From Oscillospiraceae bacterium (GTDB taxonomy: Bacteria > Bacillota > Clostridia > Oscillospirales > Oscillospiraceae): a stretch of 64,000 bases of DNA. The stretch lies in assembly GCA_034926415.1 (NCBI GenBank), contig JAYFRC010000034.1:4232-68231 (forward strand), written 5' to 3'. Shown here piece after piece: positions 3,401 through 18,475 of this stretch. Positions within the stretch are counted from its first letter, which is position 1; every line of letters starts with the position of its first letter. The notes under the pieces were generated by a model. The model saw nothing but the letters and a program-made list of their open reading frames with translations. It ran no database searches and was not told the DNA's origin. The position numbers were made by a program, and so were the translations under genes.

Positions 3401-3478
3401 ATTTGCGAATCATACGCAAATTATGCTATCACTCAGTCTGTTCTTTGTCAATCAAAATTGCGAACTGATTGCAAATTT
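3401..3478. promoter_or_regulatory. Candidate Fur/Zur operators in the zur / ferredoxin divergent spacer
   Basis: Inverted repeat ATTTGCG-N7-CGCAAAT at 3401-3421, about 20 bp upstream of the zur start. AAAATTGCGAACTGATTGCAAATTT lies at 3454-3478. The core TTGCGAA/TTGCAAA recurs four times in 78 bp. Confidence 0.35.
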
Positions 3479-3646: not shown

Positions 3647-3877
3647 ATGGCTTTTGGCTTTGGACGAAAAGAAGCCGCCGATGGCAACGCGGACAAGAAA
3701 CTGGTGGTAAACAAACATCGCTGCCCGCAGAACCATCCCTGTCCCTCTGTGCGGGTATGCCCCGTCGGCGCGCTGTCCCAGAGCGGATTTTCTGCCCCTG
3801 TGGTGGATCAGGACAAATGCATCAGCTGTGGGAAATGCGTCCGTTTTTGTCCCATGAGAGCGCTCAACCTCGAATAA
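3647..3877 (+). CDS. Small 4Fe-4S ferredoxin-domain protein
   Basis: 76 aa. One canonical CISCGKCVRFCP motif plus an atypical CPQNHPCPSVRVCP motif. Confidence 0.7.
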   Translation: MAFGFGRKEAADGNADKKLVVNKHRCPQNHPCPSVRVCPVGALSQSGFSAPVVDQDKCISCGKCVRFCPMRALNLE

Positions 3878-3950
3878 CTATTAACCTGGAATAACCAGGT
3901 GGGGAAAGCGGCTCCGGCATCATTAAACGAAGCAGGTTTTTAAGTAATTT

Positions 3951-3986
3951 GCGGCATATGTCAATTTAGTTATTGACATATGCCGC
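3951..3986 (+). terminator. Perfect 14-bp inverted repeat: terminator-like hairpin after the ferredoxin gene and/or operator
   Basis: GCGGCATATGTCAA-N8-TTGACATATGCCGC followed by TTTCATTT. The right arm contains the -35 of the next promoter. Confidence 0.55.
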
Positions 3987-4001
3987 TTTCATTTGTATAA
4001 T
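3973..4001 (+). promoter_or_regulatory. Consensus sigma-A type promoter for the DUF134 operon
   Basis: TTGACA (3973-3978), 17-nt spacer, TATAAT (3996-4001), about 50 nt upstream of the DUF134 start. Confidence 0.6.
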
Positions 4002-4050
4002 CCAATATTAAATAACACATGCTAAAATAAAACAACAGGATGTGAAAACC

Positions 4051-4431
4051 ATGCCGCGTCCGAAAAAATGCAGGAAGGTCTGCTGCCTTCCGCCAATCAG
4101 CGAGTTTGTTCCCGCAGGAGAGGGCGTCCCCTGCCGCGAAACCGTCGTGATGACGGTGGACGAATATGAAACGGTTCGCCTCATCGACAACGAGGGCTTT
4201 ACACAGGAAGAATGCAGCAAATATATGAACATCGCGCGCACCACGGTACAGCAGATATACGACGGCGCGCGCAGGAAGATTGCCCAGGCGCTTGTGAAGG
4301 GACTGCCTCTCAGAATCGAGGGAGGCGACTACCATCTGTGCGACGGCAATGAACGCTATTGCGGCTGCGGAGGCTGCCGGAGACACCGGCGCGGCTGTAT
4401 GGAGCAGCTGCAGGAGGAGGAAAATCCATGA
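4051..4431 (+). CDS. DUF134/UPF0251 predicted DNA-binding protein with Cys-rich C-terminus
   Basis: MPRPKKCRKVCCLP N-terminus typical of DUF134. Sigma-70 region-4-like HTH (FTQEECSKYMNIARTTVQQIY). C-terminal HLCDGNERYCGCGGC. ATG at 4051 preferred over GTG at 4042. Confidence 0.75.
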   Translation: MPRPKKCRKVCCLPPISEFVPAGEGVPCRETVVMTVDEYETVRLIDNEGFTQEECSKYMNIARTTVQQIYDGARRKIAQALVKGLPLRIEGGDYHLCDGNERYCGCGGCRRHRRGCMEQLQEEENP

Positions 4432-4784
4432 TAATCGCAATTCCCGTTGATGAGGGAAAGGAAGCCGTATGCGTTTCCTTTGGACGCGCGCCGTATTTCC
4501 TGATTCACAATACCGAAAACGGCGAGACAAACGCAGTAGAAAACCCGGCGGCCGAGGCGCAGGGCGGCGCGGGCATTCAGGCCGCACAGTTTGTTGTGGA
4601 TACCGGCGCGGACGCGCTGATAACGGTTCGCTGCGGGCAGAACTCCGCGGATGTATTCAAAGCGGCGAATCTCAAAATTTACAGGGCGCAGGGCGAAAGC
4701 GCCTCCAAAAACCTCAAATCGCTTGCGGAGGGAAAACTTGAGGAGCTGAACAGCTTCCATGCGGGTTTTCACGGCAAGGCATGA
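4428..4784 (+). CDS. NifX/NifB-C-terminal-like (dinitrogenase FeMo-cofactor-binding fold) protein
   Basis: MIIAIPVDEGKEAVCVSFGRAPYFLI..AQFVVDTGADALIT pattern of the NifX-like family. AGGAGGAGG RBS. ATGA overlap with the DUF134 stop. Confidence 0.75.
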   Translation: MIIAIPVDEGKEAVCVSFGRAPYFLIHNTENGETNAVENPAAEAQGGAGIQAAQFVVDTGADALITVRCGQNSADVFKAANLKIYRAQGESASKNLKSLAEGKLEELNSFHAGFHGKA

Positions 4785-5617
4785 AGGTCTCGGTGCTCAG
4801 CGGAAAGGGCGGCGCGGGCAAGACCTTTGTGTCTGTGAACCTTGCCGCCGCCGCGAAAAGCGCGGTCTACATCGACTGCGATGTGGAGGAGCCGAACGGC
4901 CGCCTTTACTGGAAACCAAACGTCGAGAGCAAAACGCCGGTCGACGTTTTGGTCCCTACGTTCGACGAGGAAGAGTGCAGCGGCTGCCGGAAATGCGTGA
5001 AGTTCTGCCATTTTCACGCTCTGGCTTTTGTCAGGGATCGCCCGATGGTGTTTCACGAGGTATGTCATTCCTGCGGCGGCTGCGCGCTGGTCTGCCCGGA
5101 ACATGCCGTCTCTGAAGCCCCGCGTCAGGTGGGAGCGGTTGAAGAAGGCATGAGCGGTGACGTACGGGTTGTGACCGGAATCCTCAACAACGGCGAGGTC
5201 TCGGCTGTGCCTGTCATAAAATCCGCTCTGCGTGCGGGCGGCGAAGCCGAGTTCACGGTCATCGACTGCCCTCCCGGCAGCGGATGTCCGGTAATGGAAA
5301 GCGTGAAGGCTGCGGATTGCTGCCTGCTGGTGGCCGAACCCACCGCCTTCGGCTTCCACAATTTCAAGATGGTGCATCGGTTGGCCGTGCTGCTGCAAAA
5401 GCCCTGCGGCGTGATAATCAACAAGGCGGATACGCCCTACGCGCCGCTAGAAGAATACTGCGCGGCGCAGGGCCTTCCAATTTTGATGCGTGTCCCTTAC
5501 AGCGCGCATCTGGCCGCTCTGGGCGCGGCGGGAGAAATCACCGTGCAGTATGACGCGGACCTTGCAAAAGCATTTTGCGCTCTGCTGGATGCCGTCCGAA
5601 ATGGGGCGATCCTATGA
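4781..5617 (+). CDS. MinD/ParA-superfamily P-loop ATPase with inserted 2x[4Fe-4S] ferredoxin domain
   Basis: Deviant Walker A GKGGAGKT. CSGCRKCVKFC and CHSCGGCALVCP motifs. DCPPGSGCPV. ATGA overlap with the upstream gene. Confidence 0.8.
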   Translation: MKVSVLSGKGGAGKTFVSVNLAAAAKSAVYIDCDVEEPNGRLYWKPNVESKTPVDVLVPTFDEEECSGCRKCVKFCHFHALAFVRDRPMVFHEVCHSCGGCALVCPEHAVSEAPRQVGAVEEGMSGDVRVVTGILNNGEVSAVPVIKSALRAGGEAEFTVIDCPPGSGCPVMESVKAADCCLLVAEPTAFGFHNFKMVHRLAVLLQKPCGVIINKADTPYAPLEEYCAAQGLPILMRVPYSAHLAALGAAGEITVQYDADLAKAFCALLDAVRNGAIL

Positions 5618-6486
5618 AGAAACTGCTGATTCTAAGCGGCAAGGGCGGCACGGGCAAGACCACCACCGCCGCCGCGTTTATTCGCTTTGCCGCCGCCCGC
5701 GCCTATGCGGACTGCGATGTTGACGCGCCGAACTTGCATCTGGTATCCCCGATAAGCGGCGAGCCGGAGCGATTTGACTATCTGGGCTCGCAGAAAGCCT
5801 CCATTGATTCTCGGAAATGCATCGGCTGCGGGAAGTGCGCGGAGGCCTGCCGCTTTGATGCGATAAGCCGCACGGGAAACATTTTATCAGTCGACGAATT
5901 TTCCTGCGAGGGCTGTGGCGTGTGCGCGGAGCTCTGCCCCGAGGGCGCGGTCTCGCTTTTGGATGACGTGGCCGGAGAGGTGACGCTCTATCGTTCCCCG
6001 GCGGTGTTTGCCACGGCGGAGCTCAAAATGGGGCGCGGCAATTCCGGCAAGCTTGTGTCTGAGGTTAAGCTTGCGCTGGCGAACGCCGCGCGGGACGAGA
6101 ATCTCGCCATCATCGACGGCTCGCCCGGCATCGGCTGCCCGGTGATCGCCTCTATGGGCGGGGTGGATCTTGTGCTTATCGTGGCGGAGCCTTCGCTTTC
6201 GGGGCGCAGCGATCTTGAACGCATCCTGAAAACAGCGGAAATATTCGAGACAAAAGCGGCTGTCTGCGTCAATAAATACGACACAAGCCCTGAAAATACA
6301 GAGAAAATCTATCAATTTTGCGCCGGGCGCGGTATTCCCTTCGTTGGCCGGATTCCATACGACAAGCAGGCGTCCGCCGCCATCAACGCCGGAAAAAGCC
6401 TTGCGGATATAGACTGTGCCGCATCCCGAGCGCTGCACGAAGTGTTTGAGCGCACTATGGATCTGCTCGGAGTCGAAGCAAGTTGA
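5614..6486 (+). CDS. MinD/ParA-superfamily P-loop ATPase with inserted 2x[4Fe-4S] ferredoxin domain (paralogue)
   Basis: GKGGTGKTT, CIGCGKCAEAC, CEGCGVCAELCP, DGSPGIGCPV. The start at MKKLLIL gives an ATGA overlap with the upstream stop. Confidence 0.8.
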   Translation: MKKLLILSGKGGTGKTTTAAAFIRFAAARAYADCDVDAPNLHLVSPISGEPERFDYLGSQKASIDSRKCIGCGKCAEACRFDAISRTGNILSVDEFSCEGCGVCAELCPEGAVSLLDDVAGEVTLYRSPAVFATAELKMGRGNSGKLVSEVKLALANAARDENLAIIDGSPGIGCPVIASMGGVDLVLIVAEPSLSGRSDLERILKTAEIFETKAAVCVNKYDTSPENTEKIYQFCAGRGIPFVGRIPYDKQASAAINAGKSLADIDCAASRALHEVFERTMDLLGVEAS

Positions 6487-6584
6487 AAATCGCATGGCGC
6501 AGTATCAATCTCTGAAAACAAAAATGAAGCAGCTGCATCATCCGCCCTGCGGGCGGATGCCGGCGCTTTGAGGAGGAACACAAC

Positions 6585-7406
6585 ATGAGCGAAGAATGTT
6601 CGCACACCTGCGAAAGCTGCGGCAAGGACTGCAGCGAACGTACAAAAGAAAGCCTGCTGGAAAAGCCCCATGAGGGCTGCCATGTGAAAAAAGTCATCGG
6701 CGTGGTCAGCGGCAAGGGCGGCGTGGGCAAGAGCCTCGTCACCTCCATGCTCGCGGTTATGACCCAGAGAAAAGGCTACCAGGCGGCTATCCTGGACGCC
6801 GATATCACCGGCCCCTCCATTCCGCAGATGTTAGGCCTGCACACCCACGCCTCGGGAACGGAATCCGGCATTTACCCGGTTAAATCCAAGACCGGAATCC
6901 GAGTCATGTCCCTCAATCTGCTTATGGAACGTGAGACAGACCCGGTGGTATGGCGCGGCCCCATTATCGCGGGCACGGTCAAGCAGTTCTGGACGGACGT
7001 AATCTGGGGCGACGTGGACTATATGTTCATCGACATGCCGCCCGGCACCGGCGACGTGCCCCTGACTGTGTTCCAGTCCATCCCTGTGGACGGCCTTGTC
7101 ATCGTTGCCTCCCCGCAGGAGCTGGTGGGCATGATAGTTGAAAAGGCAGTCAACATGGCGGGCATAATGAACATTCCCGTTCTTGCTCTGGTCGAGAACA
7201 TGAGCTATATCGTCTGCCCTGACTGCGGCAGGGAGATCCGTGTGTTCGGCGAAAGCCGGATTGCCGAGATCGCGAAAAAGCATTTCATCGAGAACACCGC
7301 GCGCCTGTCTATCGATCCGAAGCTGGCGGCGGCCTGCGACGCAGGCATGATAGAGCTTTTCGACGGAAACTGGCTGAACGAGATACTCGATACCATTATA
7401 AAATAA
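6585..7406 (+). CDS. Mrp/NBP35/ApbC-family Fe-S cluster carrier ATPase
   Basis: GKGGVGKS deviant Walker A, conserved CPDC near the C-terminus, Cys-rich N-terminus CSHTCESCGKDC. AGGAGG RBS. Confidence 0.85.
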   Translation: MSEECSHTCESCGKDCSERTKESLLEKPHEGCHVKKVIGVVSGKGGVGKSLVTSMLAVMTQRKGYQAAILDADITGPSIPQMLGLHTHASGTESGIYPVKSKTGIRVMSLNLLMERETDPVVWRGPIIAGTVKQFWTDVIWGDVDYMFIDMPPGTGDVPLTVFQSIPVDGLVIVASPQELVGMIVEKAVNMAGIMNIPVLALVENMSYIVCPDCGREIRVFGESRIAEIAKKHFIENTARLSIDPKLAAACDAGMIELFDGNWLNEILDTIIK

Positions 7407-7425
7407 TTAAAAGGAGAAATTTATT

Positions 7426-7788
7426 ATGAAAATTGCGGTTGCCTGCAACGGCGAACAGATTTTTGGCCATTTTGGCCACTGCGAGAATTTTATGCTTTTT
7501 GACGTGGAAAATGGCAAGATTACCGGCGCGAAGAGCGTCCCCAATCCCGGCCACAAGCCCGGCTTCCTGCCGAACTTTCTGGCTGATCAGGGCGCCGGGG
7601 TCATCATCGCCGGAGGCATGGGCGGCGGCGCCGTGGATATTTTCAACGAACGCGGCGTGGAAGTGGTCACCGGAGCGGAGGGCGACGCCCGCCAGGCGGC
7701 GGAAGCCTACCTGCGCGGCGAGCTGAAGTCCACGGGTTCCGTCTGTCACGATCACGCGTTTGAAAGCGAGTGCGGCAGCCATAAATAA
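7426..7788 (+). CDS. NifX/NifB-C-terminal-like protein (second copy)
   Basis: MKIAVACNGEQIFGHFGHCENFMLFDVENGKI..GVIIAGGMGGGA, the typical family signature. Confidence 0.75.
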   Translation: MKIAVACNGEQIFGHFGHCENFMLFDVENGKITGAKSVPNPGHKPGFLPNFLADQGAGVIIAGGMGGGAVDIFNERGVEVVTGAEGDARQAAEAYLRGELKSTGSVCHDHAFESECGSHK

Positions 7789-7861: not shown

Positions 7862-7899
7862 AAAAACCTCCGCGCGTTTTTAACGCACGGAGGTTTTTT
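7862..7899. terminator. Bidirectional intrinsic terminator
   Basis: AAAAA-CCTCCGCGCG-loop-CGCACGGAGG-TTTTTT between convergent genes (the + gene ends at 7788, the - gene ends at 7926). Confidence 0.7.
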
Positions 7900-7925: not shown

Positions 7926-9353
7926 TTATTCGCCGAGAACCTCAACGTCGATATTCATCATCTTGCAGATGGTCTTTAGCTCGTCTATATGGTCGCCGTA
8001 TACCGCGTGGGCGTGGTTGGCGTCGAAATTGTCGAGGAATACCTTATAGTCGAAGTGAAGCTTCGCGAAATTGTGCGGCCACTCCTTGTTCGTCAGGGCT
8101 TCGCGCTCCTTTGGAAGCGAGACAAGCTCCGCCGTGAACATGACCATGCGGTATCTGCGCCTGCCGTCTTCGTCCATGGAGCGGCAGAGACGCGCGATGG
8201 TGCAGAGGCCGGGCGCGGTCTGGCAGTTTACATGGCAGCCGCCGCCCGCGTATATGTCGAGGCAGGGATAGAGCGTGACGTTTTTCATGTTCTCGTCCGG
8301 GTCGTCGCTGTGCGCGGCGTACCATGTTGACTCGGAGCCGCAGTTGCAGAACTCGAGCACCTGATTCTCCTCGTCCCAGTGGCGGACGTCCATGAACACG
8401 ACGGGCTCGTGCGTCAGCAGCTTTAAAATCTGCATCGTCATGGCGGCATCGGAATCGGCCTCGCAGGCGTAGACCACGGGCTCCTTCTTTCCGTCCCAGT
8501 CGTAGGGATCGTTCATGAAGGCCGCCGCGATGCACTCCGTGCAGTAATGGCAGCTCATGTCATAATGGCACTTGACGCCGACAAAATCAAAGCCGTTCTC
8601 TTCCTGTATGCGCTTTATCGCCTCGTAATGGCGTATCTGTGTCTTTAGCTTCTCCGGCGTGAGCTTCACGCCGTCGTACTCGATGGACTTGCACTTTTCG
8701 GTCAGCCAATCGAAAGCCTTGTCGACCTGAGCCTGCGGAACCTCCGCGGCAAGGCGGACTATCTCGCTTTCGTCGCAGTGCTCGACGTCGACGCCGAATT
8801 TCTCCTGCCAGTCCTGCATATCGACCGTTGCGCTGTACATTCCGAGCGAGCGGCCGCCGATAAGACCGTATTTCTCGCCGTTGAGCGAGTGGACCACATA
8901 GGCGCATTTTGCAAATGTTATGATGCGCGCGAGGACTTCGGACGAATTGAAGTCGCCGTAGGCGCGGAAGTGGCGCACGCCCTGCTGGTTAAGCGCGCCG
9001 CCCGCGGCGAGCATGGCGACCATGCCAGGCCAGTCCGGGTTGAGCTGGGCTGCGAGAAGATATGGCCCCTGGCCGTATTTCGCCGCGACTGCGGAAAAAT
9101 TAGGCCACGCGAAAACGCCGTAGGAGAATATCGTGCCGTCGACGCCTTTCGCCTTCAGTTTTTCGGCCTCCTCTTTCGCGGATTTGACCGAGGTAACGAG
9201 ATTGTCGGCCGTGATCACGTCAACGCGGCCGTCTTTTTCAAGAGCCGCTTTTATAACGTCGAGCTGATGCTGAACTACGTCCTTGCTTTTTTCATGTACG
9301 ATGGGGTCTCCGTCGGACAGCCCCATAAGGCCGAGAAGAGGTTTTCTGAGCAT
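7926..9353 (-). CDS. L-fucose/L-arabinose isomerase-family protein (FucI-like aldose-ketose isomerase), substrate unknown
   Basis: 475-aa ORF with overall resemblance to FucI-like proteins. Last gene of the dhaK-dhaL-rpiB operon. Confidence 0.65.
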   Translation of the reverse strand: MLRKPLLGLMGLSDGDPIVHEKSKDVVQHQLDVIKAALEKDGRVDVITADNLVTSVKSAKEEAEKLKAKGVDGTIFSYGVFAWPNFSAVAAKYGQGPYLLAAQLNPDWPGMVAMLAAGGALNQQGVRHFRAYGDFNSSEVLARIITFAKCAYVVHSLNGEKYGLIGGRSLGMYSATVDMQDWQEKFGVDVEHCDESEIVRLAAEVPQAQVDKAFDWLTEKCKSIEYDGVKLTPEKLKTQIRHYEAIKRIQEENGFDFVGVKCHYDMSCHYCTECIAAAFMNDPYDWDGKKEPVVYACEADSDAAMTMQILKLLTHEPVVFMDVRHWDEENQVLEFCNCGSESTWYAAHSDDPDENMKNVTLYPCLDIYAGGGCHVNCQTAPGLCTIARLCRSMDEDGRRRYRMVMFTAELVSLPKEREALTNKEWPHNFAKLHFDYKVFLDNFDANHAHAVYGDHIDELKTICKMMNIDVEVLGE

Positions 9354-9435
9354 AACAACATCCCCTTTTTCGAAATTATTATTTATATGTATTTCCGGGA
9401 GCCCGGACGGATATTATCGGCCGAGCCAGAATTTA

Positions 9436-9873
9436 TCAGCGATTTAAGTCATATTCTTTATAACGGTCCACCTTGGGCTGGGACGGGCATCCGGCAGTGA
9501 AATCACTGCCAAGCCAAGTCTTTATAAGTTCCGCCGCCAGCTTCTCACCGATGGTGAACGCGCCGATGCAGGCGATGTTGCTGTCGTTGCTCTTCATCGC
9601 GCGCTCAGCTGAATAAACATCCGATATGAGCGCCGCGTAAGCTCCGCGAACCTTGTTCGCGGCGATGCTCATTCCTACGCCGGTGCCGCAGAGGAGTATG
9701 CCTCTGTCGTATTTTCCGGCAGCGACAGCTTCCGCCACCGCGATGGCGGTATTGGCGTATATTGGATCGTCGCTTCCCATGTCGGTTATCTCATGCCCCT
9801 GAGCCTTGCAGACCTCGATAATTGATTTTTTGAGCGCGGTCGCATTCGGATCGCAGCCTATTGCGAGCTTCAT
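9436..9873 (-). CDS. rpiB: RpiB/LacA/LacB-family sugar-phosphate isomerase
   Basis: 145 aa. MKLAIGCDPNA..LLCGTGVGMSIAANKV signature. Confidence 0.85.
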   Translation of the reverse strand: MKLAIGCDPNATALKKSIIEVCKAQGHEITDMGSDDPIYANTAIAVAEAVAAGKYDRGILLCGTGVGMSIAANKVRGAYAALISDVYSAERAMKSNDSNIACIGAFTIGEKLAAELIKTWLGSDFTAGCPSQPKVDRYKEYDLNR

Positions 9874-9926
9874 GTTTATGTCATTTCCTTTCTTTGTCTA
9901 TATCCGGATTTTCCAGTATATCAAAA

Positions 9927-10583
9927 TCACAGCAGCGGCGCTATACCGTCCGCCATGGCCTGAAGTATAAGGCAGCATGAGCAGGAGCCGGCGTCAAGCA
10001 CGCCTCTCGACCGCTCTCCAAGGCGGCTCGAGCGGCCGTATTTCGCGACCATGTCGTTAGTGCTGTCCCTGCCCTTTTCAGCCGCATCCTTCATATGCGC
10101 GAGCGCTTCCGCGAAAGACGTTCCGGCCTCAGCATCCTTTTGCAGCGACGACGACGCCGGAGCGAGCGTATCGACAAGCGTCTTGTCGCCGGGGCGCGCG
10201 TCTACTATGCCGTAAAGCTCCTCAAGCCCCGCCGAAAGCGCCTTGCTGAACGCGGCGAGGTCTATCTCATCGCTTCCGCTCTCGTCGAGCGAATCGGCGA
10301 TACCCATCATTATAGTACCGTAGATCGGGCCCATGGAGCCGCCTATCTCGTTGAGCAGTATCATCGCAAGGTTGTTCAGGCCTTCGGTGAAGGAAAAATC
10401 CTCAGCGCCGTGGCGGGTCTCAAACATGGTGAAACCCTTGTTCATGTTCGCGCCGTGGTCGCCGTCACCGATGAGACCGTCAACGTCGCCGAGATAAGTC
10501 TTGTTGTCCTGTATGCTCTTTACCATCGCAAGCAGGATTGGCTTTCCAGCTTTATTGGAAAAATATCCCTTCATATCGCTCAC
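9927..10583 (-). CDS. dhaL: Dihydroxyacetone-kinase family, nucleotide-binding subunit DhaL
   Basis: GDGDHGANMNKGF motif, all-helical 218-aa protein, directly downstream of dhaK. Confidence 0.85.
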   Translation of the reverse strand: MSDMKGYFSNKAGKPILLAMVKSIQDNKTYLGDVDGLIGDGDHGANMNKGFTMFETRHGAEDFSFTEGLNNLAMILLNEIGGSMGPIYGTIMMGIADSLDESGSDEIDLAAFSKALSAGLEELYGIVDARPGDKTLVDTLAPASSSLQKDAEAGTSFAEALAHMKDAAEKGRDSTNDMVAKYGRSSRLGERSRGVLDAGSCSCCLILQAMADGIAPLL

Positions 10584-10586
10584 CCC

Positions 10587-11582
10587 TCAGTCCTGCTTGA
10601 AGCCCATGCTGTAAGCGGGCATATCAACGAGCTTTTTAAGTTCATCGTCGAGTTTCATTACTGTCAGCGTCACGCCCATCATTTCAAGCGACGTGAAGTA
10701 GTTGCCTACATAGGCTTTGTGAATGCGTATCCCGGCAGCGGAAATTATTTTCTCTATCTCATTATAAAGCACATACTGCTCCATCACCGGCGTTGCACCG
10801 AGACCGGAAACCAGCACCACGACCTCGTCTCCGGCCGCGAACGGATAATCCGGAAGAACTATGTCGGTCATACGCTTCGCTATGCCGGCCGCGCTCTCAA
10901 GCGGGCAGACTTCGACTCCGGGTTCGCCGTGATGCCCGATTCCTACCTCCATTGTTCCTTCCTGTATCTCAAAGTTCGGATGGCCGACGGCCGGAAGCGT
11001 GCACGGCGTCAGCCCGATTCCGACGCTGCGCGTAGAATCTATGGCTTTCTGAGCCGCCCGTATGACCTCGTCGAGCGGCGCTCCCGTCGAAGCCATGGCC
11101 CCGCCGCACTTCCACATCAGCACCTCGCCCGCGACGCCGCGGCGCTTTCCGCTCTGATCCTTCGGCGCGGACGCGACGTCGTCGTTTGCGACGACGGTTT
11201 TTACCGTCACGCCCTGCTTCGCGGCCATTTTGACCGCCATCTTTACGTTCATATTGTCGCCCGAGTAATTTCCATACAGGCACGCGACGCCGTTTCCGCT
11301 GTCGGCGGCCTTGAACGCGTCCGCAAAGGCCATCGCTGTTGGCGAAGAGAATATCTCGCCGACTGTGACGGCGTCGCAGAGATTCTTTCCGCAGTAGCCG
11401 ACAAACGCGGGCTTATGCCCGGACCCGCCTCCCGTAACTATTCCCACGCGGTTTTTCGTCGGGAACACGGACTTTACAACTCTCGGGTTGGAAGTCTTTT
11501 CCACCATATCAGGGTGAGCTTTCAAAAAGCCCTCAAGCATCTCATCCACGATATTGTCCGGATCATTCATTATCCTCTGCAC
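10587..11582 (-). CDS. dhaK: Dihydroxyacetone-kinase family, substrate-binding subunit DhaK
   Basis: GGGSGHKP and GIGHHGEPG motifs. Probable GTG start at 11582 (GAAAGGA 8 nt upstream). The ORF track extends to a TTG at 11621. Confidence 0.85.
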   Translation of the reverse strand: MQRIMNDPDNIVDEMLEGFLKAHPDMVEKTSNPRVVKSVFPTKNRVGIVTGGGSGHKPAFVGYCGKNLCDAVTVGEIFSSPTAMAFADAFKAADSGNGVACLYGNYSGDNMNVKMAVKMAAKQGVTVKTVVANDDVASAPKDQSGKRRGVAGEVLMWKCGGAMASTGAPLDEVIRAAQKAIDSTRSVGIGLTPCTLPAVGHPNFEIQEGTMEVGIGHHGEPGVEVCPLESAAGIAKRMTDIVLPDYPFAAGDEVVVLVSGLGATPVMEQYVLYNEIEKIISAAGIRIHKAYVGNYFTSLEMMGVTLTVMKLDDELKKLVDMPAYSMGFKQD

Positions 11583-12107
11583 AACAATCTTCCTTTCATA
11601 TCTAAGCGTTTTTCGCTGCAAACGCGATACATTATTTAATTATAACTCTATATTACGGCCGCGGCACTGGGCGCCCTCAGCCTCCGAAATTTGGAAATAT
11701 GCACAAAAGTCACAAATATATTTAATAATGCCAGAGTTCAATTGTCAAGGATTAAATATAAGCGCCGTAATAAATCAGCAACCCCGCAAAAGCGCAGTCC
11801 GGCACAATTTATTTTAGGCCACGCACGGCGCAGCATTTAAATCCGTCATTTCAAACAATTGGCAAAATTTGATGGGAAATGGTCAAAAAGCAGGGCTATA
11901 TCGCCTCGTTTCCGTCACATTGAAGGCAATATAAAAGTGCGTCGCAGCGCCGTTTGAAGCCTTTTTTCCATGTCTATTTTGTCTTGACAGCAATATTCAA
12001 ACGTGCTACTCTTAGTCTAAAAGTTAAAAAAAGCGTCGCAATTAACCGTTTTTTGTTGAAATTACACAAAAATAACCGTACCTTTTGTAAAAGTTCAATG
12101 TTGCGCC

Positions 12108-16844: not shown

Positions 16845-17486
16845 ATGAATACTCTTAATTGCGTTCAGGTGCGGGAAATGCTGCTTCACACCGCGGCGAA
16901 GATAATCGACAGCAAACCGTATCTCACTGAGGTCGACAGCAAAATAGGCGACGGCGACCACGGTATAGGTATGAGCCGCGGCATGGAAAAGGCAACCGAA
17001 AAGCTCAACTCGCTCACAGAGGCGACCGACGTCTATCAGCTCTTCAGCGAGATGGGAAAGACTCTGCTCATGTCCATGGGCGGAGCGTCAGGCGTCATCT
17101 TCGGTACGATGTTTATGGGCGGAGCAAAGGGCAAGACTCCCACGGCCGAGATAAGCGCCGCTGATTTCACAGCCATGATGAACGACAGCCTCAACGCTAT
17201 AATCGCAAGAGGCGGCGCGCACGTCGGCGACAAGACGATGATAGATGCGCTCTCGCCCGCAGTCGACGCGCTGAAGGCTAACGCTGAAGGCGGCTACGCC
17301 GTCATGCTTCACGAGGCCGAGAAAGCCGCGCGCTCCGGTATGGAAAATACCAAAAATTTCCAGGCGAAATTCGGCAGGGCCAAATCGCTGATGGAGCGCT
17401 CCATAGGCTATCAGGATGCGGGCGCCACCTCGGTATGGCTCATATTTCAGGCCATGAGCGAATATGTCGAGGGGGCGGAGAAGTGA
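16845..17486 (+). CDS. dhaL: DhaL-type nucleotide-binding subunit (second set)
   Basis: GDGDHGIGMSRGM motif, 213 aa. Confidence 0.85.
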   Translation: MNTLNCVQVREMLLHTAAKIIDSKPYLTEVDSKIGDGDHGIGMSRGMEKATEKLNSLTEATDVYQLFSEMGKTLLMSMGGASGVIFGTMFMGGAKGKTPTAEISAADFTAMMNDSLNAIIARGGAHVGDKTMIDALSPAVDALKANAEGGYAVMLHEAEKAARSGMENTKNFQAKFGRAKSLMERSIGYQDAGATSVWLIFQAMSEYVEGAEK

Positions 17487-18475
17487 AGAAGAAAATCATA
17501 AACGACCCTGAAAACTGCGTCAGCGAGACCGCGGAAGGCTTCCTGCTGGCTCATCCGAAGCTGTATGAAAAGGTTCCCGACGTCGCCGGGATAAAGGTGA
17601 AAAATGTCAAGGACAAGACGGCGCTCGTCATCGGAGGCGGCAGCGGACACGAGCCGATGTTCTCCTTTTTCGTGGGCGACAATCTGGCCGACGCCGCCGC
17701 TGCCGGAAACATCTTCGCCTCGCCCGACCCGGGAACCATAATGCAGACAGCCATGTCGGTCGACTCCGGCAAGGGCGTGCTGTTCGTCTACGGAAACTAC
17801 GCGGGAGACAACCTCAACTTCGATATGGCTGCCGAGCTGCTCGGCGACATGGGAGTCGAGAGCAAAACAGTCCGCGTGCGGGACGACATAGCGTCCGCCC
17901 CGAAAGACCGCGCCGATGACAGGAGAGGCATTGCGGGAGATCTGTTCGTAGTCAAGATAGCCGGAGCGGCCACAGCGTCAGGACTCACGCTCGACGAGGC
18001 ATGGCAAGTTACGGCGAAAGCCCGCGACAACACGTTCAGTATTGGCGTTGGCCTCGAGGGCGCAACTATTCCGGGAGAAAGCAAGCCGATATTCACCCTG
18101 CCCGAGGACGAGATAGAATTCGGGCTCGGCATACACGGCGAGCCCGGCGTCCACAGAATGAAGATGATGTCCGCCGACGCTATAGTCGACATGCTCGTCG
18201 AATTGCTGCTCAAGGATTCCGGCATCAAGGCCGGAGACCGCGTATGCACTTACGTCAACGGGCTCGGCTCCACCACGCTGATGGAGCTGCACATAATGAA
18301 CAGGCGGCTCGCTCAGATACTTCGGGAAAAACAGATATCCGTGTACGACATGGAGGTCAATTCCTACGTCACGACGCAGGAGATGGCCGGCGCGTCGATA
18401 ACGCTGTTCAAACTCGACGACGAGCTCCAGAAGTATTACGATATGCCCTGCGACTCCGTGTACTATAAGAAATAA
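17483..18475 (+). CDS. dhaK: DhaK-type substrate-binding subunit (second set)
   Basis: VKKKIINDPEN N-terminus, GGGSGHEP, GLGIHGEPG. GTG start overlapping the dhaL stop (GTGA). Confidence 0.85.
   Translation: MKKKIINDPENCVSETAEGFLLAHPKLYEKVPDVAGIKVKNVKDKTALVIGGGSGHEPMFSFFVGDNLADAAAAGNIFASPDPGTIMQTAMSVDSGKGVLFVYGNYAGDNLNFDMAAELLGDMGVESKTVRVRDDIASAPKDRADDRRGIAGDLFVVKIAGAATASGLTLDEAWQVTAKARDNTFSIGVGLEGATIPGESKPIFTLPEDEIEFGLGIHGEPGVHRMKMMSADAIVDMLVELLLKDSGIKAGDRVCTYVNGLGSTTLMELHIMNRRLAQILREKQISVYDMEVNSYVTTQEMAGASITLFKLDDELQKYYDMPCDSVYYKK

Follow-up and report, generated by a model that had tools for sequence, protein, structure and literature searches.

Positions 3647 to 7788 on the forward strand of the 64-kb stretch of Oscillospiraceae DNA analysed here (the window, whose numbering is used throughout) carry genes for a ferredoxin, a DUF134 protein, two Di-Nase (NifX-like) proteins, two MinD-type ATPases and an Mrp/NBP35 ATPase, which an initial annotation had described as a seven-gene cluster of unknown function for the handling of iron-sulfur (Fe-S) clusters or other metalloclusters. 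Judged from gene content and protein similarity, this locus matches the orange protein (ORP) system of Desulfovibrio gene for gene and is not an orphan cluster. We consider, with a probability of roughly 60%, that the Firmicute-type ORP operon is a self-contained, ATP-dependent module that would assemble, hold or hand over Fe-S (possibly heterometal-sulfide) clusters in strict anaerobes, under feedback repression by its DUF134 protein and a Di-Nase sensor.

ORP genes are among the most widespread conserved "anaerobe-only" clusters and are abundant in human-gut Clostridia; their role has been open since 2011. The ORP complex of Desulfovibrio has been pulled down: Orp3 and Orp4 are MinD-like paralogues with two [4Fe-4S] ferredoxin motifs each, Orp8 is the orange protein, a member of the Di-Nase family with a homologue that binds a Mo-Cu-S cluster, and a homologue of Orp5 binds a [2Fe-2S] cluster (PMC6345978). 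MrpORP (Orp9) holds a bridging [4Fe-4S] cluster on a CXXC motif and a [3Fe-4S] cluster on its Di-Nase domain, and in D. vulgaris it transfers Fe-S clusters to a co-purifying Orp3-Orp4-Orp8 complex (PMC6345978). The Desulfovibrio orp genes form two divergent sigma-54 operons activated by the redox-sensing regulator OrpR (PMC6345978, PMC8359166), which is limited to delta-proteobacteria (PMC8359166). Given this work, it is not correct that the combination lacks an experimental history; for its ultimate physiological role, "unknown function" is still fair. The locus itself is an ordinary, very common ORP member in gut Clostridia. Its ORP-type identity ties gut Firmicutes to Desulfovibrio biochemistry, and with the operator and the DUF134-DiNase fusions described below, what was an annotation gap (DUF134, COG1149) becomes a regulatory circuit open to direct test.

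Gene content, split MrpORP and related loci

Domains were assigned with Pfam and NCBIfam. All seven open reading frames (ORFs) were confirmed on the forward strand (Table 1), with the domains and cysteine motifs ascribed to them earlier, among them a Cys-rich N-terminus (CSHTCESCGKDC) and a CPDC motif in the Mrp protein and CGCGGC in the DUF134 protein. The ATGA start/stop overlaps at 4428, 4781 and 5614, which had been taken to couple the first operon genes translationally, are real. Since the DUF134 homologues all begin with MPRP, we place the start of this gene at the ATG at 4051 and not at the GTG at 4042. The best protein matches of the window come from Oscillospiraceae, close to Oscillibacter and Lawsonibacter.

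The initial interpretation was right in spirit and missed two things, namely the ORP identity and the split MrpORP. The NCBIfam model of MrpORP (NF041136; equivalog cutoff 450 bits) is matched by the Mrp protein with 322.8 bits over model positions 3-235 and by Di-Nase B with 112.6 bits over positions 265-365. Fused Mrp-DiNase proteins of related Clostridial loci exceed the cutoff (470.8, 460.7, 451.2 and 466.9 bits), and neither product of the window attains it alone because its MrpORP lies in two genes. Against the fused MrpORP of Anaerovirgula, Mrp is 67% identical over residues 1-275 and Di-Nase B 63% identical over residues 286-403. Both halves are thus collinear with the fused protein, and the window encodes a split MrpORP, in which the P-loop and Di-Nase domains occupy two genes 19 nt apart instead of one. 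Mrp retains the CXXC motif and the N-terminal cysteines of MrpORP, and Di-Nase B the FGHFGHCE, PNPGHKPGFLP and CHDH motifs described by others (PMC6345978), so that the CxHFGHCE, proline-rich and C(H)DH elements of the family are all kept. The association of Mrp with a Di-Nase domain has arisen several times independently (PMC6345978).

As a reference for delta-proteobacterial orp genes we used the locus of Desulfoglaeba alkanexedens, a cultivated sulfate reducer, as a proxy for the D. vulgaris genes. Its order is ATPase-ATPase-PAS/sigma-54 enhancer-binding protein (EBP)-MrpORP (so named by NCBI)-DiNase, with a -24/-12-like element (TGGCAC-N5-TTGC). ATPase A is 39% identical to the first and 32% to the second of its ATPases, ATPase B 42% to the second and 33% to the first; by these one-to-one, reciprocal-type best matches, the two ATPase paralogues are older than the split of these phyla. 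Mrp is 38% identical to the N-terminal half of the D. alkanexedens MrpORP, Di-Nase B 42% to its C-terminal half, and Di-Nase A 32% to the Di-Nase protein of that orp locus. With the ORP system of D. vulgaris Hildenborough and D. alaskensis G20 the window shares the ATPase pair, single-domain proteins of the Di-Nase family (PF02579), the Mrp and Di-Nase module and the restriction to anaerobes. It differs in having one operon instead of two divergent ones, in its split MrpORP, and in regulation: Desulfovibrio has a sigma-54 promoter, IHF and the PAS-[4Fe-4S] activator OrpR, whereas the window has a consensus sigma-70 promoter, GRCATATGYC boxes and DUF134. No EBP gene was found among the ORFs and Pfam matches in the flanks of the operon within the window.

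To define the conserved unit, species-representative genomes were scanned with an alignment of the ATPases, and the six-frame ORFs of the 80 resulting genome loci (individual loci are cited by L numbers) were searched with the window proteins; neighbourhoods were surveyed in flanks of +/-8 kb (operator and gene scans within +/-8-10 kb). The conserved order is DUF134-Di-Nase A-ATPase A-ATPase B-(MBL-fold)-(Mrp)-Di-Nase B. Almost all loci have the ATPase pair, DUF134 comes first in 39, and Mrp and Di-Nase B are either fused or split. The hosts include Clostridia, Synergistota, Spirochaetota, Chloroflexota, Thermodesulfobacteriota, Bathyarchaeia, Methanothrix and others, that is, anaerobic Bacteria and Archaea, with one record labelled Bacillus marasmi. 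By this recurrence in 80 loci of many phyla, the gene arrangement is far beyond chance. The gene order reported in the initial annotation is real; its seventh member is not part of the unit. In the vicinity of the cluster, a small ferredoxin is encoded in just 4 of 84 loci, and the order fdx-operator-DUF134 is found only in very close relatives such as L087. As fdx is nearly absent from related loci and is separated from the operon by a promoter, the conserved unit comprises six genes, and the ferredoxin was rejected as a member.

Both ATPases carry the deviant Walker A motif GKGGxGKT with its signature lysine, and they share this motif and a dimer-type architecture with the SIMIBI ATPases NifH, CooC and MinD; they differ from these in the 2x[4Fe-4S] ferredoxin insert and in having no equivalent of NifH Cys97. 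The insert had been recognised correctly: A and B are paralogues, 32% identical, each with two CxxCxxCxxxC motifs and hence eight ferredoxin cysteines, as expected of the adjacent MinD-like pair of an ORP locus. Among 80 and 83 homologues there is hardly any variation at these eight cysteines, at a cysteine in switch I (DCD) or at one in switch II (GxGCP). By motif alignment, the switch-II cysteine appears to lie in the register of NifH Cys132, which is a cluster ligand. A protein search was saturated by more than 8000 relatives of the ATPases; we found no solved structure for the ferredoxin-ATPase subfamily and no relevant literature on COG1149 ferredoxin-insert ATPases.

The deviant Walker A motif is that of MinD and ParA, and loss of orp expression in D. 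vulgaris leads to morphological defects, with MrpORP located at the pole (PMC6345978, PMC8359166, PMC4672049). As proposed for the Desulfovibrio complex, the Fe-S ATPases might form a positioning system for cell division that places the septum or segregates DNA, with the Di-Nase proteins as accessories. However, they score only 35-40 bits against the NCBIfam MinD models TIGR01968 and TIGR01969, far under the cutoffs of 201-213 bits; the annotated recurrent neighbour families of the 80 loci include no minC-, minE- or fts-like family; and ten to twelve conserved cysteines per ATPase together with two carrier proteins are hard to explain by positioning alone. We regard a pure positioning role as quite unlikely.

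Those recurrent families point elsewhere. MBL-fold genes were found in 22 loci, where they occupy the place of the 98-nt spacer between ATPase B and Mrp in the window (6487-6584; e.g. L032 8807-9670, L019 2186-3010), DUF5320 genes in 19, NifU/IscU-like scaffolds in 15, radical SAM genes in 8, DUF364/DUF4213 genes in 5 and Fur-family genes in 5 by clustering or 4 by phmmer. Fusions of a CDF transporter with a Di-Nase domain adjoin the ATPase pair in 4 archaeal loci (e.g. L066 11349-12614, with a C-terminal PF02579 domain), and sigma-54 EBPs occur in 5 loci, all of the delta/Thermodesulfobacteriota type. Neither a client metalloenzyme nor a cell-division gene is among the annotated recurrent neighbour families of the 80 loci. 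The IscU, Mrp, Fur, CDF-DiNase and DUF364 neighbours would favour metal or Fe-S trafficking over cell division. DUF5320, which is absent from the window, is a small protein rich in Gly and Arg (MPRxDGTGPxGxGPMTGRGxGxC...) that has a coiled-coil tail and is often encoded by the first operon gene in relatives (e.g. L010 6056-6316, L012, L014, L020, L031); its cationic Gly-rich region recalls the thioferrate-binding tail of IssA.

The general idea of an ATP-driven Fe-S or heterometal system working on NifX-like carriers agrees with the gene content, and no client metalloenzyme is linked to it among the 20 largest other ORFs of the window or recurrently in the 80 loci. Both Di-Nase proteins have the small fold of NifX, NafY, the C-terminal domain of NifB and IssA (PF02579/IPR003731), which binds inorganic Fe-S(-Mo) clusters without classical motifs (PMC5524996). 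They lack the Gly-rich cationic tail of IssA, the thioferrate storage protein, and with the NifB model the score is only 16 bits; no nif genes lie near the cluster. A cluster built around NifX-like and NifH-like proteins could be a dedicated maturase (NifX/NafY-, NifH- or CooC-like) for a known complex metalloenzyme encoded elsewhere in the genome, such as a nitrogenase-like enzyme, a hydrogenase or carbon monoxide dehydrogenase (CODH)/acetyl-CoA synthase. PF02579 being the NifX/NafY/NifB-C domain, the ATPases being of the same SIMIBI class as NifH and CooC, and the putative alignment of the switch-II cysteine with NifH Cys132 all fit this. Yet nitrogenase, hydrogenase and CODH are absent from the 20 largest other ORFs of the window (smaller ORFs lay outside the scan), in line with what had been noted before; no such structural gene recurs within +/-8 kb in the 80 loci, and nifHDK, nifEN and nifB are likewise neither in those 20 ORFs nor recurrent. 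The cluster moreover occurs in very diverse anaerobes with differing metalloenzyme sets, and its operator is confined to these operons, so that no co-regulated client is visible. A dedicated maturase is thus highly improbable.

Which cluster the carriers hold is a separate matter. Di-Nase A is clearly a PF02579 member (74.8 bits) and at most a candidate Orp8 orthologue; it is closest to MTH1175 and TM1290, with 79 bits to the Protein Data Bank (PDB) structure 1eo1 and a match also to 1rdu. In the founding orange protein the cluster is [S2MoS2CuS2MoS2] (cited in PMC6345978), and Di-Nase A also matches the structure of the D. gigas orange protein (2wfb). In Oscillibacter sp. L001/L002 (2721-5790), the closest related locus with readable flanks, the operon is divergent to a ModA-type ABC transporter (63.7 bits with TIGR01256, cutoff 62.5, in L001) and a DUF364 "heavy-metal chelation" gene, and in L182 a DUF134-DiNase fusion adjoins what by eye is a ChrA-like oxyanion transporter. 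The system might accordingly handle thiomolybdate or thiotungstate and copper, with the Di-Nase proteins binding Mo(W)-S-Cu clusters and the ATPases as the source of electrons or sulfide, so as to keep Mo/W/Cu in balance or detoxify them in sulfidic habitats. But the 2wfb match is weak (26.8 bits, E=5.6e-5) beside the 68-79 bits of MTH1175/TM1290-type proteins, ModA adjacency is confined to L001 (1/80 loci) and DUF364 to 5/80, and the MrpORP Di-Nase domain and a small ORP-operon protein bind plain Fe-S clusters. An Rfam search found no riboswitch or leader, Moco/Wco riboswitches included. This specialised reading seems unlikely to us.

Promoter, operator boxes and the proposed DUF134 regulator

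The consensus sigma-70 promoter lies between fdx and DUF134, and a palindromic box overlaps it. TTGACATATGYC is found at the same promoter position in 37 related loci. The core box is a 10-bp palindrome, GRCATATGYC, and the extended form a 22-bp palindrome, GTTATTGACATATGTCAnWAAC, which amounts to two inverted TTGACA hexamers 2 bp apart. In 1.1 Mb (the window and 84 loci), 84 copies of the exact box were counted against about 4 expected; after two duplicate loci were dropped, 70 of 80 boxes fell between -80 and +460 of the first cluster gene. Box-bearing hosts span Clostridia, Erysipelotrichaceae, Veillonella, Synergistaceae, Sphaerochaeta, Izemoplasmatales, Dehalococcoidia and Sumerlaeota; the D. 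alkanexedens reference locus has no box. The layout is fixed, with box 1 over the -35 element and spacer, the -10 element 17 nt on, and box 2 covering the start site some 39 bp further downstream, where most relatives have an exact box flanked by TAAAT...AAAAC. Members of the Oscillospiraceae group have an extra box 22-23 bp upstream, giving the three-box layout seen in L001, L006, L007, L013, L023 and L087.

The exact box is present in 32 of 39 loci in which DUF134 comes first and in 7 of 41 others (Fisher p=6.5e-9, ignoring phylogenetic relatedness). In an independent test, a scan of metagenome contigs with a DNA-only pattern, TGACATATGYC-N24-32-TGRCATATGYC, gave 120 loci, in 102 of which a core gene starts within 700 nt downstream, the first being DUF5320 in 45, DUF134 in 44, Di-Nase in 12 and Mrp in 1. 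Among the other 18, which were inspected, 3-4 are orp-like, about 9 are tandem satellite repeats and 3 are unexplained. As at least 102 of 120 loci are orp-like operons, the operator is essentially private to them. The satellite-like repeats (L107, L114, L132, L139, L091, L128, L100), which contain TGACATATGTCA, are chance matches to the pattern and unrelated to the operon. L181 (186-1239) has almost the same three-box promoter as L006, followed by a 306-aa ORF without Pfam match in place of DUF134, which may be a rearrangement or an extra regulon member. In L035 (5516-6795), a pair of DUF134 genes diverges from an intergenic region that holds four boxes (at 6225, 6264, 6321 and 6359), an arrangement reminiscent of two two-box promoters placed back to back.

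In the window, boxes 0 and 1 form a perfect 15-bp inverted repeat overlapping the promoter. This palindrome (3951-3986) could be a mere intrinsic terminator of fdx, in which case DUF134 would be something other than the operon regulator, for instance a structural or nucleic-acid-binding subunit; the hairpin of 15 pairs is followed by a TTTCATTTGT tail and was scored as terminator-like. What is kept across phyla, however, in loci without a ferredoxin gene, is the box sequence and not pairing alone; the box stands in fixed register to the -35 and -10 elements; and the distance between the two boxes, about 39 bp in most loci, is too great for a compact hairpin. All ten core positions are specific, ATAT being the centre of 80 of 1144 GRC-N4-GYC sites and the next commonest centre occurring 16 times, and the DNA-only scan recovers operons led by DUF134 or DUF5320. 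We rejected the terminator-only explanation for its conflict with the cross-phylum conservation and promoter register of the box, and a role of DUF134 other than regulation is improbable. A CRP/FNR-type operator (TTGAT-N4-ATCAA-like) was rejected as well, since the specificity of all ten core positions, the centre included, argues against such a site and the box is centred at about -28, not -41.5.

The product of the first operon gene is a DUF134 family member (PF02001, 74.9 bits against a gathering score of 27) whose database relatives are all named just "DUF134 domain-containing protein"; our searches found no literature on DUF134/UPF0251 (COG1342) and no solved structure of a relative. Pfam gives weak Sigma70_r4 matches. 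In an AlphaFold2 model (pLDDT 75 overall, 86-96 for residues 31-90), Foldseek superimposes the core on sigma region 4 with a root-mean-square deviation (rmsd) of 0.6-0.8 A over about 48 residues (E 0.08-0.5). Sigma region 4 is the -35-binding domain. Of 41 sequences, 40-41 retain cysteines C11, C55, C97 and C109, and 34 retain C104 (C104/106 in the window); in the model the N-terminal strand is paired with strands of the C-terminus, an arrangement that would place C11 close to the C-terminal cysteines. DUF134 and a Di-Nase domain of A or B subtype are fused in a single ORF directly behind the operator in 6 genome loci and 18 metagenome loci (24 independent cases). One of these, in L182 (5680-7590), follows a two-box operator and is itself followed by two ORFs with FGGGxAxIPLI-type motifs that, by eye, resemble a split ChrA (chromate/oxyanion) transporter.

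The early suggestion that DUF134 is a Cys-based cluster- or redox-sensing regulator thus gains strong comparative support from the operator, the sigma-4-like helix-turn-helix (HTH), the cysteines and the fusions. A perfect promoter needs no activator, and operators placed on the -35 element and on the start of transcription point to a repressor; these features support DUF134 as a putative autorepressor, with its sensor in its own Cys site, in its Di-Nase partner, or in both. In proposed logic it resembles IscR, SufR, RirA and OrpR, in which a Cys-liganded sensor autoregulates a cluster operon, here through palindromic operators overlapping the promoter. It would differ from these in its unrelated fold (sigma-region-4-like HTH, PF02001) and in that the putative sensor may be a separate or fused NifX-like domain. 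More broadly, and at somewhat less than even odds, DUF134/UPF0251 may be a widespread, hitherto uncharacterised repressor class that binds inverted -35 hexamers (TTGACA-TA-TGTCAA), competes directly with sigma-A and senses the load of the Fe-S or metal-sulfide cluster pool through a NifX-like (Di-Nase) domain, whether fused or translationally coupled, and a Cys4 site. In the literature searched, both the conserved operator and the DUF134-DiNase link appear undescribed.

Proposed working of the module

We propose that Mrp/NBP35 dimerises around a bridging [4Fe-4S] cluster on CPDC and donates clusters to both ferredoxin-ATPases, as has been shown for the Desulfovibrio homologues. ATPases A and B would form an ATP-dependent heterodimer with four [4Fe-4S] clusters, to which the DCD and GCP cysteines could add an inter-subunit site. 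ATP binding and hydrolysis would gate the transfer of electrons or a cluster to a bound Di-Nase carrier, a step suggested by the co-purification of Orp3, Orp4 and Orp8 in Desulfovibrio, and Di-Nase A and B would hold a labile inorganic cluster. By comparative genomics, a dimeric DUF134 protein with a Cys4-type site would bind the boxes over the -35 element and, usually, the transcription start and so repress its own operon, its activity being set by cluster or redox state via its own cysteines and/or Di-Nase A, which is coupled to it here and fused elsewhere. It would thereby replace OrpR, the Fe-S-containing sigma-54 activator of delta-proteobacteria.

Several points weigh against this reading. 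The case is computational throughout, and the ORP-type orthology rests on the proxy locus and an NCBIfam model. In the published work on Desulfovibrio, cell division is the favoured role. On the regulatory side, box 2 of the window is degenerate where that of relatives is exact, some 10-15% of box-bearing loci have no adjacent DUF134, and the Fisher test is blind to phylogenetic relatedness. The Foldseek E-values of the predicted sigma-4 match are not significant (0.08-0.5), though rmsd and probability are favourable. Structural zinc is an equally possible ligand of the conserved DUF134 cysteines, and the repressing form may be holo or apo.

If the broader DUF134 reading is true, DUF134 is the first regulator known with a NifX-type cluster carrier as sensor, the long-unexplained ORP system acquires both a defined input signal and, in gut Clostridia, a reporter assay, and two unrelated sensors, OrpR with sigma-54 and DUF134 with sigma-70, act on the same machinery in different phyla. 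The circuit can be tested with a short probe, a small protein and a reporter, by which the controlling signal (iron, sulfide, redox or Mo/W/Cu) and through it the purpose of the system could be identified. In transcriptomes of D. alaskensis the orp genes Dde_3197-3199 co-vary with feoA and flavodoxin (PMC10533852), which hints at iron status but goes no further.

Feature coordinates and flanking genes

Table 1. Features of the ORP operon and its surroundings in the window
Feature	Position	Strand	Remarks
Ferredoxin gene fdx, 76 aa, 7 Cys	3647..3877	+	Fer4 matches; lineage-specific upstream neighbour, outside the conserved unit
Operator box 0, GGCATATGTC	3953..3962	.	22 bp upstream of box 1; Oscillospiraceae-type promoter feature
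Sigma-70 promoter	3973..4001	+	TTGACA 3973-3978, 17-nt spacer, TATAAT 3996-4001; 12/12 consensus
Operator box 1, GACATATGCC	3975..3984	.	Overlaps -35 element and spacer
Degenerate operator box 2, AACACATGCT	4014..4023	.	7/10 match; spaced about 39 bp from box 1 on its downstream side; covers predicted transcription start/5' untranslated region; putative
DUF134/UPF0251 protein, 126 aa	4051..4431	+	PF02001, 74.9 bits; sigma-region-4-like HTH and conserved cysteines; proposed autorepressor
Di-Nase/NifX-like carrier A, 118 aa, ORP/MTH1175-type, single-domain	4428..4784	+	PF02579, 74.8 bits; proposed sensor partner and cluster carrier
MinD-type ATPase A, 278 aa, inserted 2x[4Fe-4S] ferredoxin domain	4781..5617	+	CbiA/MinD and Fer4; Orp3/Orp4 type
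MinD-type ATPase B, 290 aa, inserted 2x[4Fe-4S] ferredoxin domain	5614..6486	+	CbiA/MinD and Fer4; Orp3/Orp4 type
Mrp/NBP35 P-loop Fe-S carrier, 273 aa	6585..7406	+	PF10609, 283 bits; corresponds to N-terminal half of MrpORP
Di-Nase/NifX-like protein B, 120 aa	7426..7788	+	PF02579, 78.7 bits; corresponds to C-terminal half of MrpORP
Inverted repeat between A-run and T-run	7862..7898	.	17-nt arms, 94% complementary; terminator-like match on the - strand

To the left, on the reverse strand, lie a Fur-family gene and ZnuA, ABC_tran and ABC-3 genes, as expected from the zur-znu operon named in the initial annotation; the direct divergent neighbour of the Fur-family gene is fdx and not the operon proper. 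We consider this adjacency a weak functional link: ZnuA adjoins the cluster in one other locus and Fur-family genes in 4-5, and L001 has a ModA-type transporter where the window has Zur/Znu, so that the flanks are not conserved. The motif TTGCGAA-N5-YGCAAAT occurs twice, at 3401-3421 (a palindrome with 10-nt arms) and 3455-3478, flanking a promoter-like site on the reverse strand (TTGACA-17-TAGCAT, 3451-3423) upstream of the Fur-family gene; the pair probably serves as the Zur/Fur operator of the znu operon. A predicted membrane protein of 100 aa, which has a CPVC motif and is matched by neither Pfam nor NCBIfam, is encoded on the reverse strand at 2654-2956, between the Fur-family gene and znuA.

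The right flank is convergent. The inverted repeat at 7862-7898 is likely a bidirectional terminator between the operon and a sugar-isomerase-like gene, which resembles fucose/sulfoquinovose isomerases and belongs to a sugar-catabolism block on the reverse strand (7926-11621). An ORF at 9436-9873 in this block is RpiB-like by eye only, and further ORFs lie at 9927-10583 and 10587-11621. The 20 largest other ORFs of the window have unrelated functions (c-di-GMP turnover, MetH, UvrB, HtrA, transporters, thiolase, Dak and others), with Pfam placing a Dak1-domain gene at 17435-18475.

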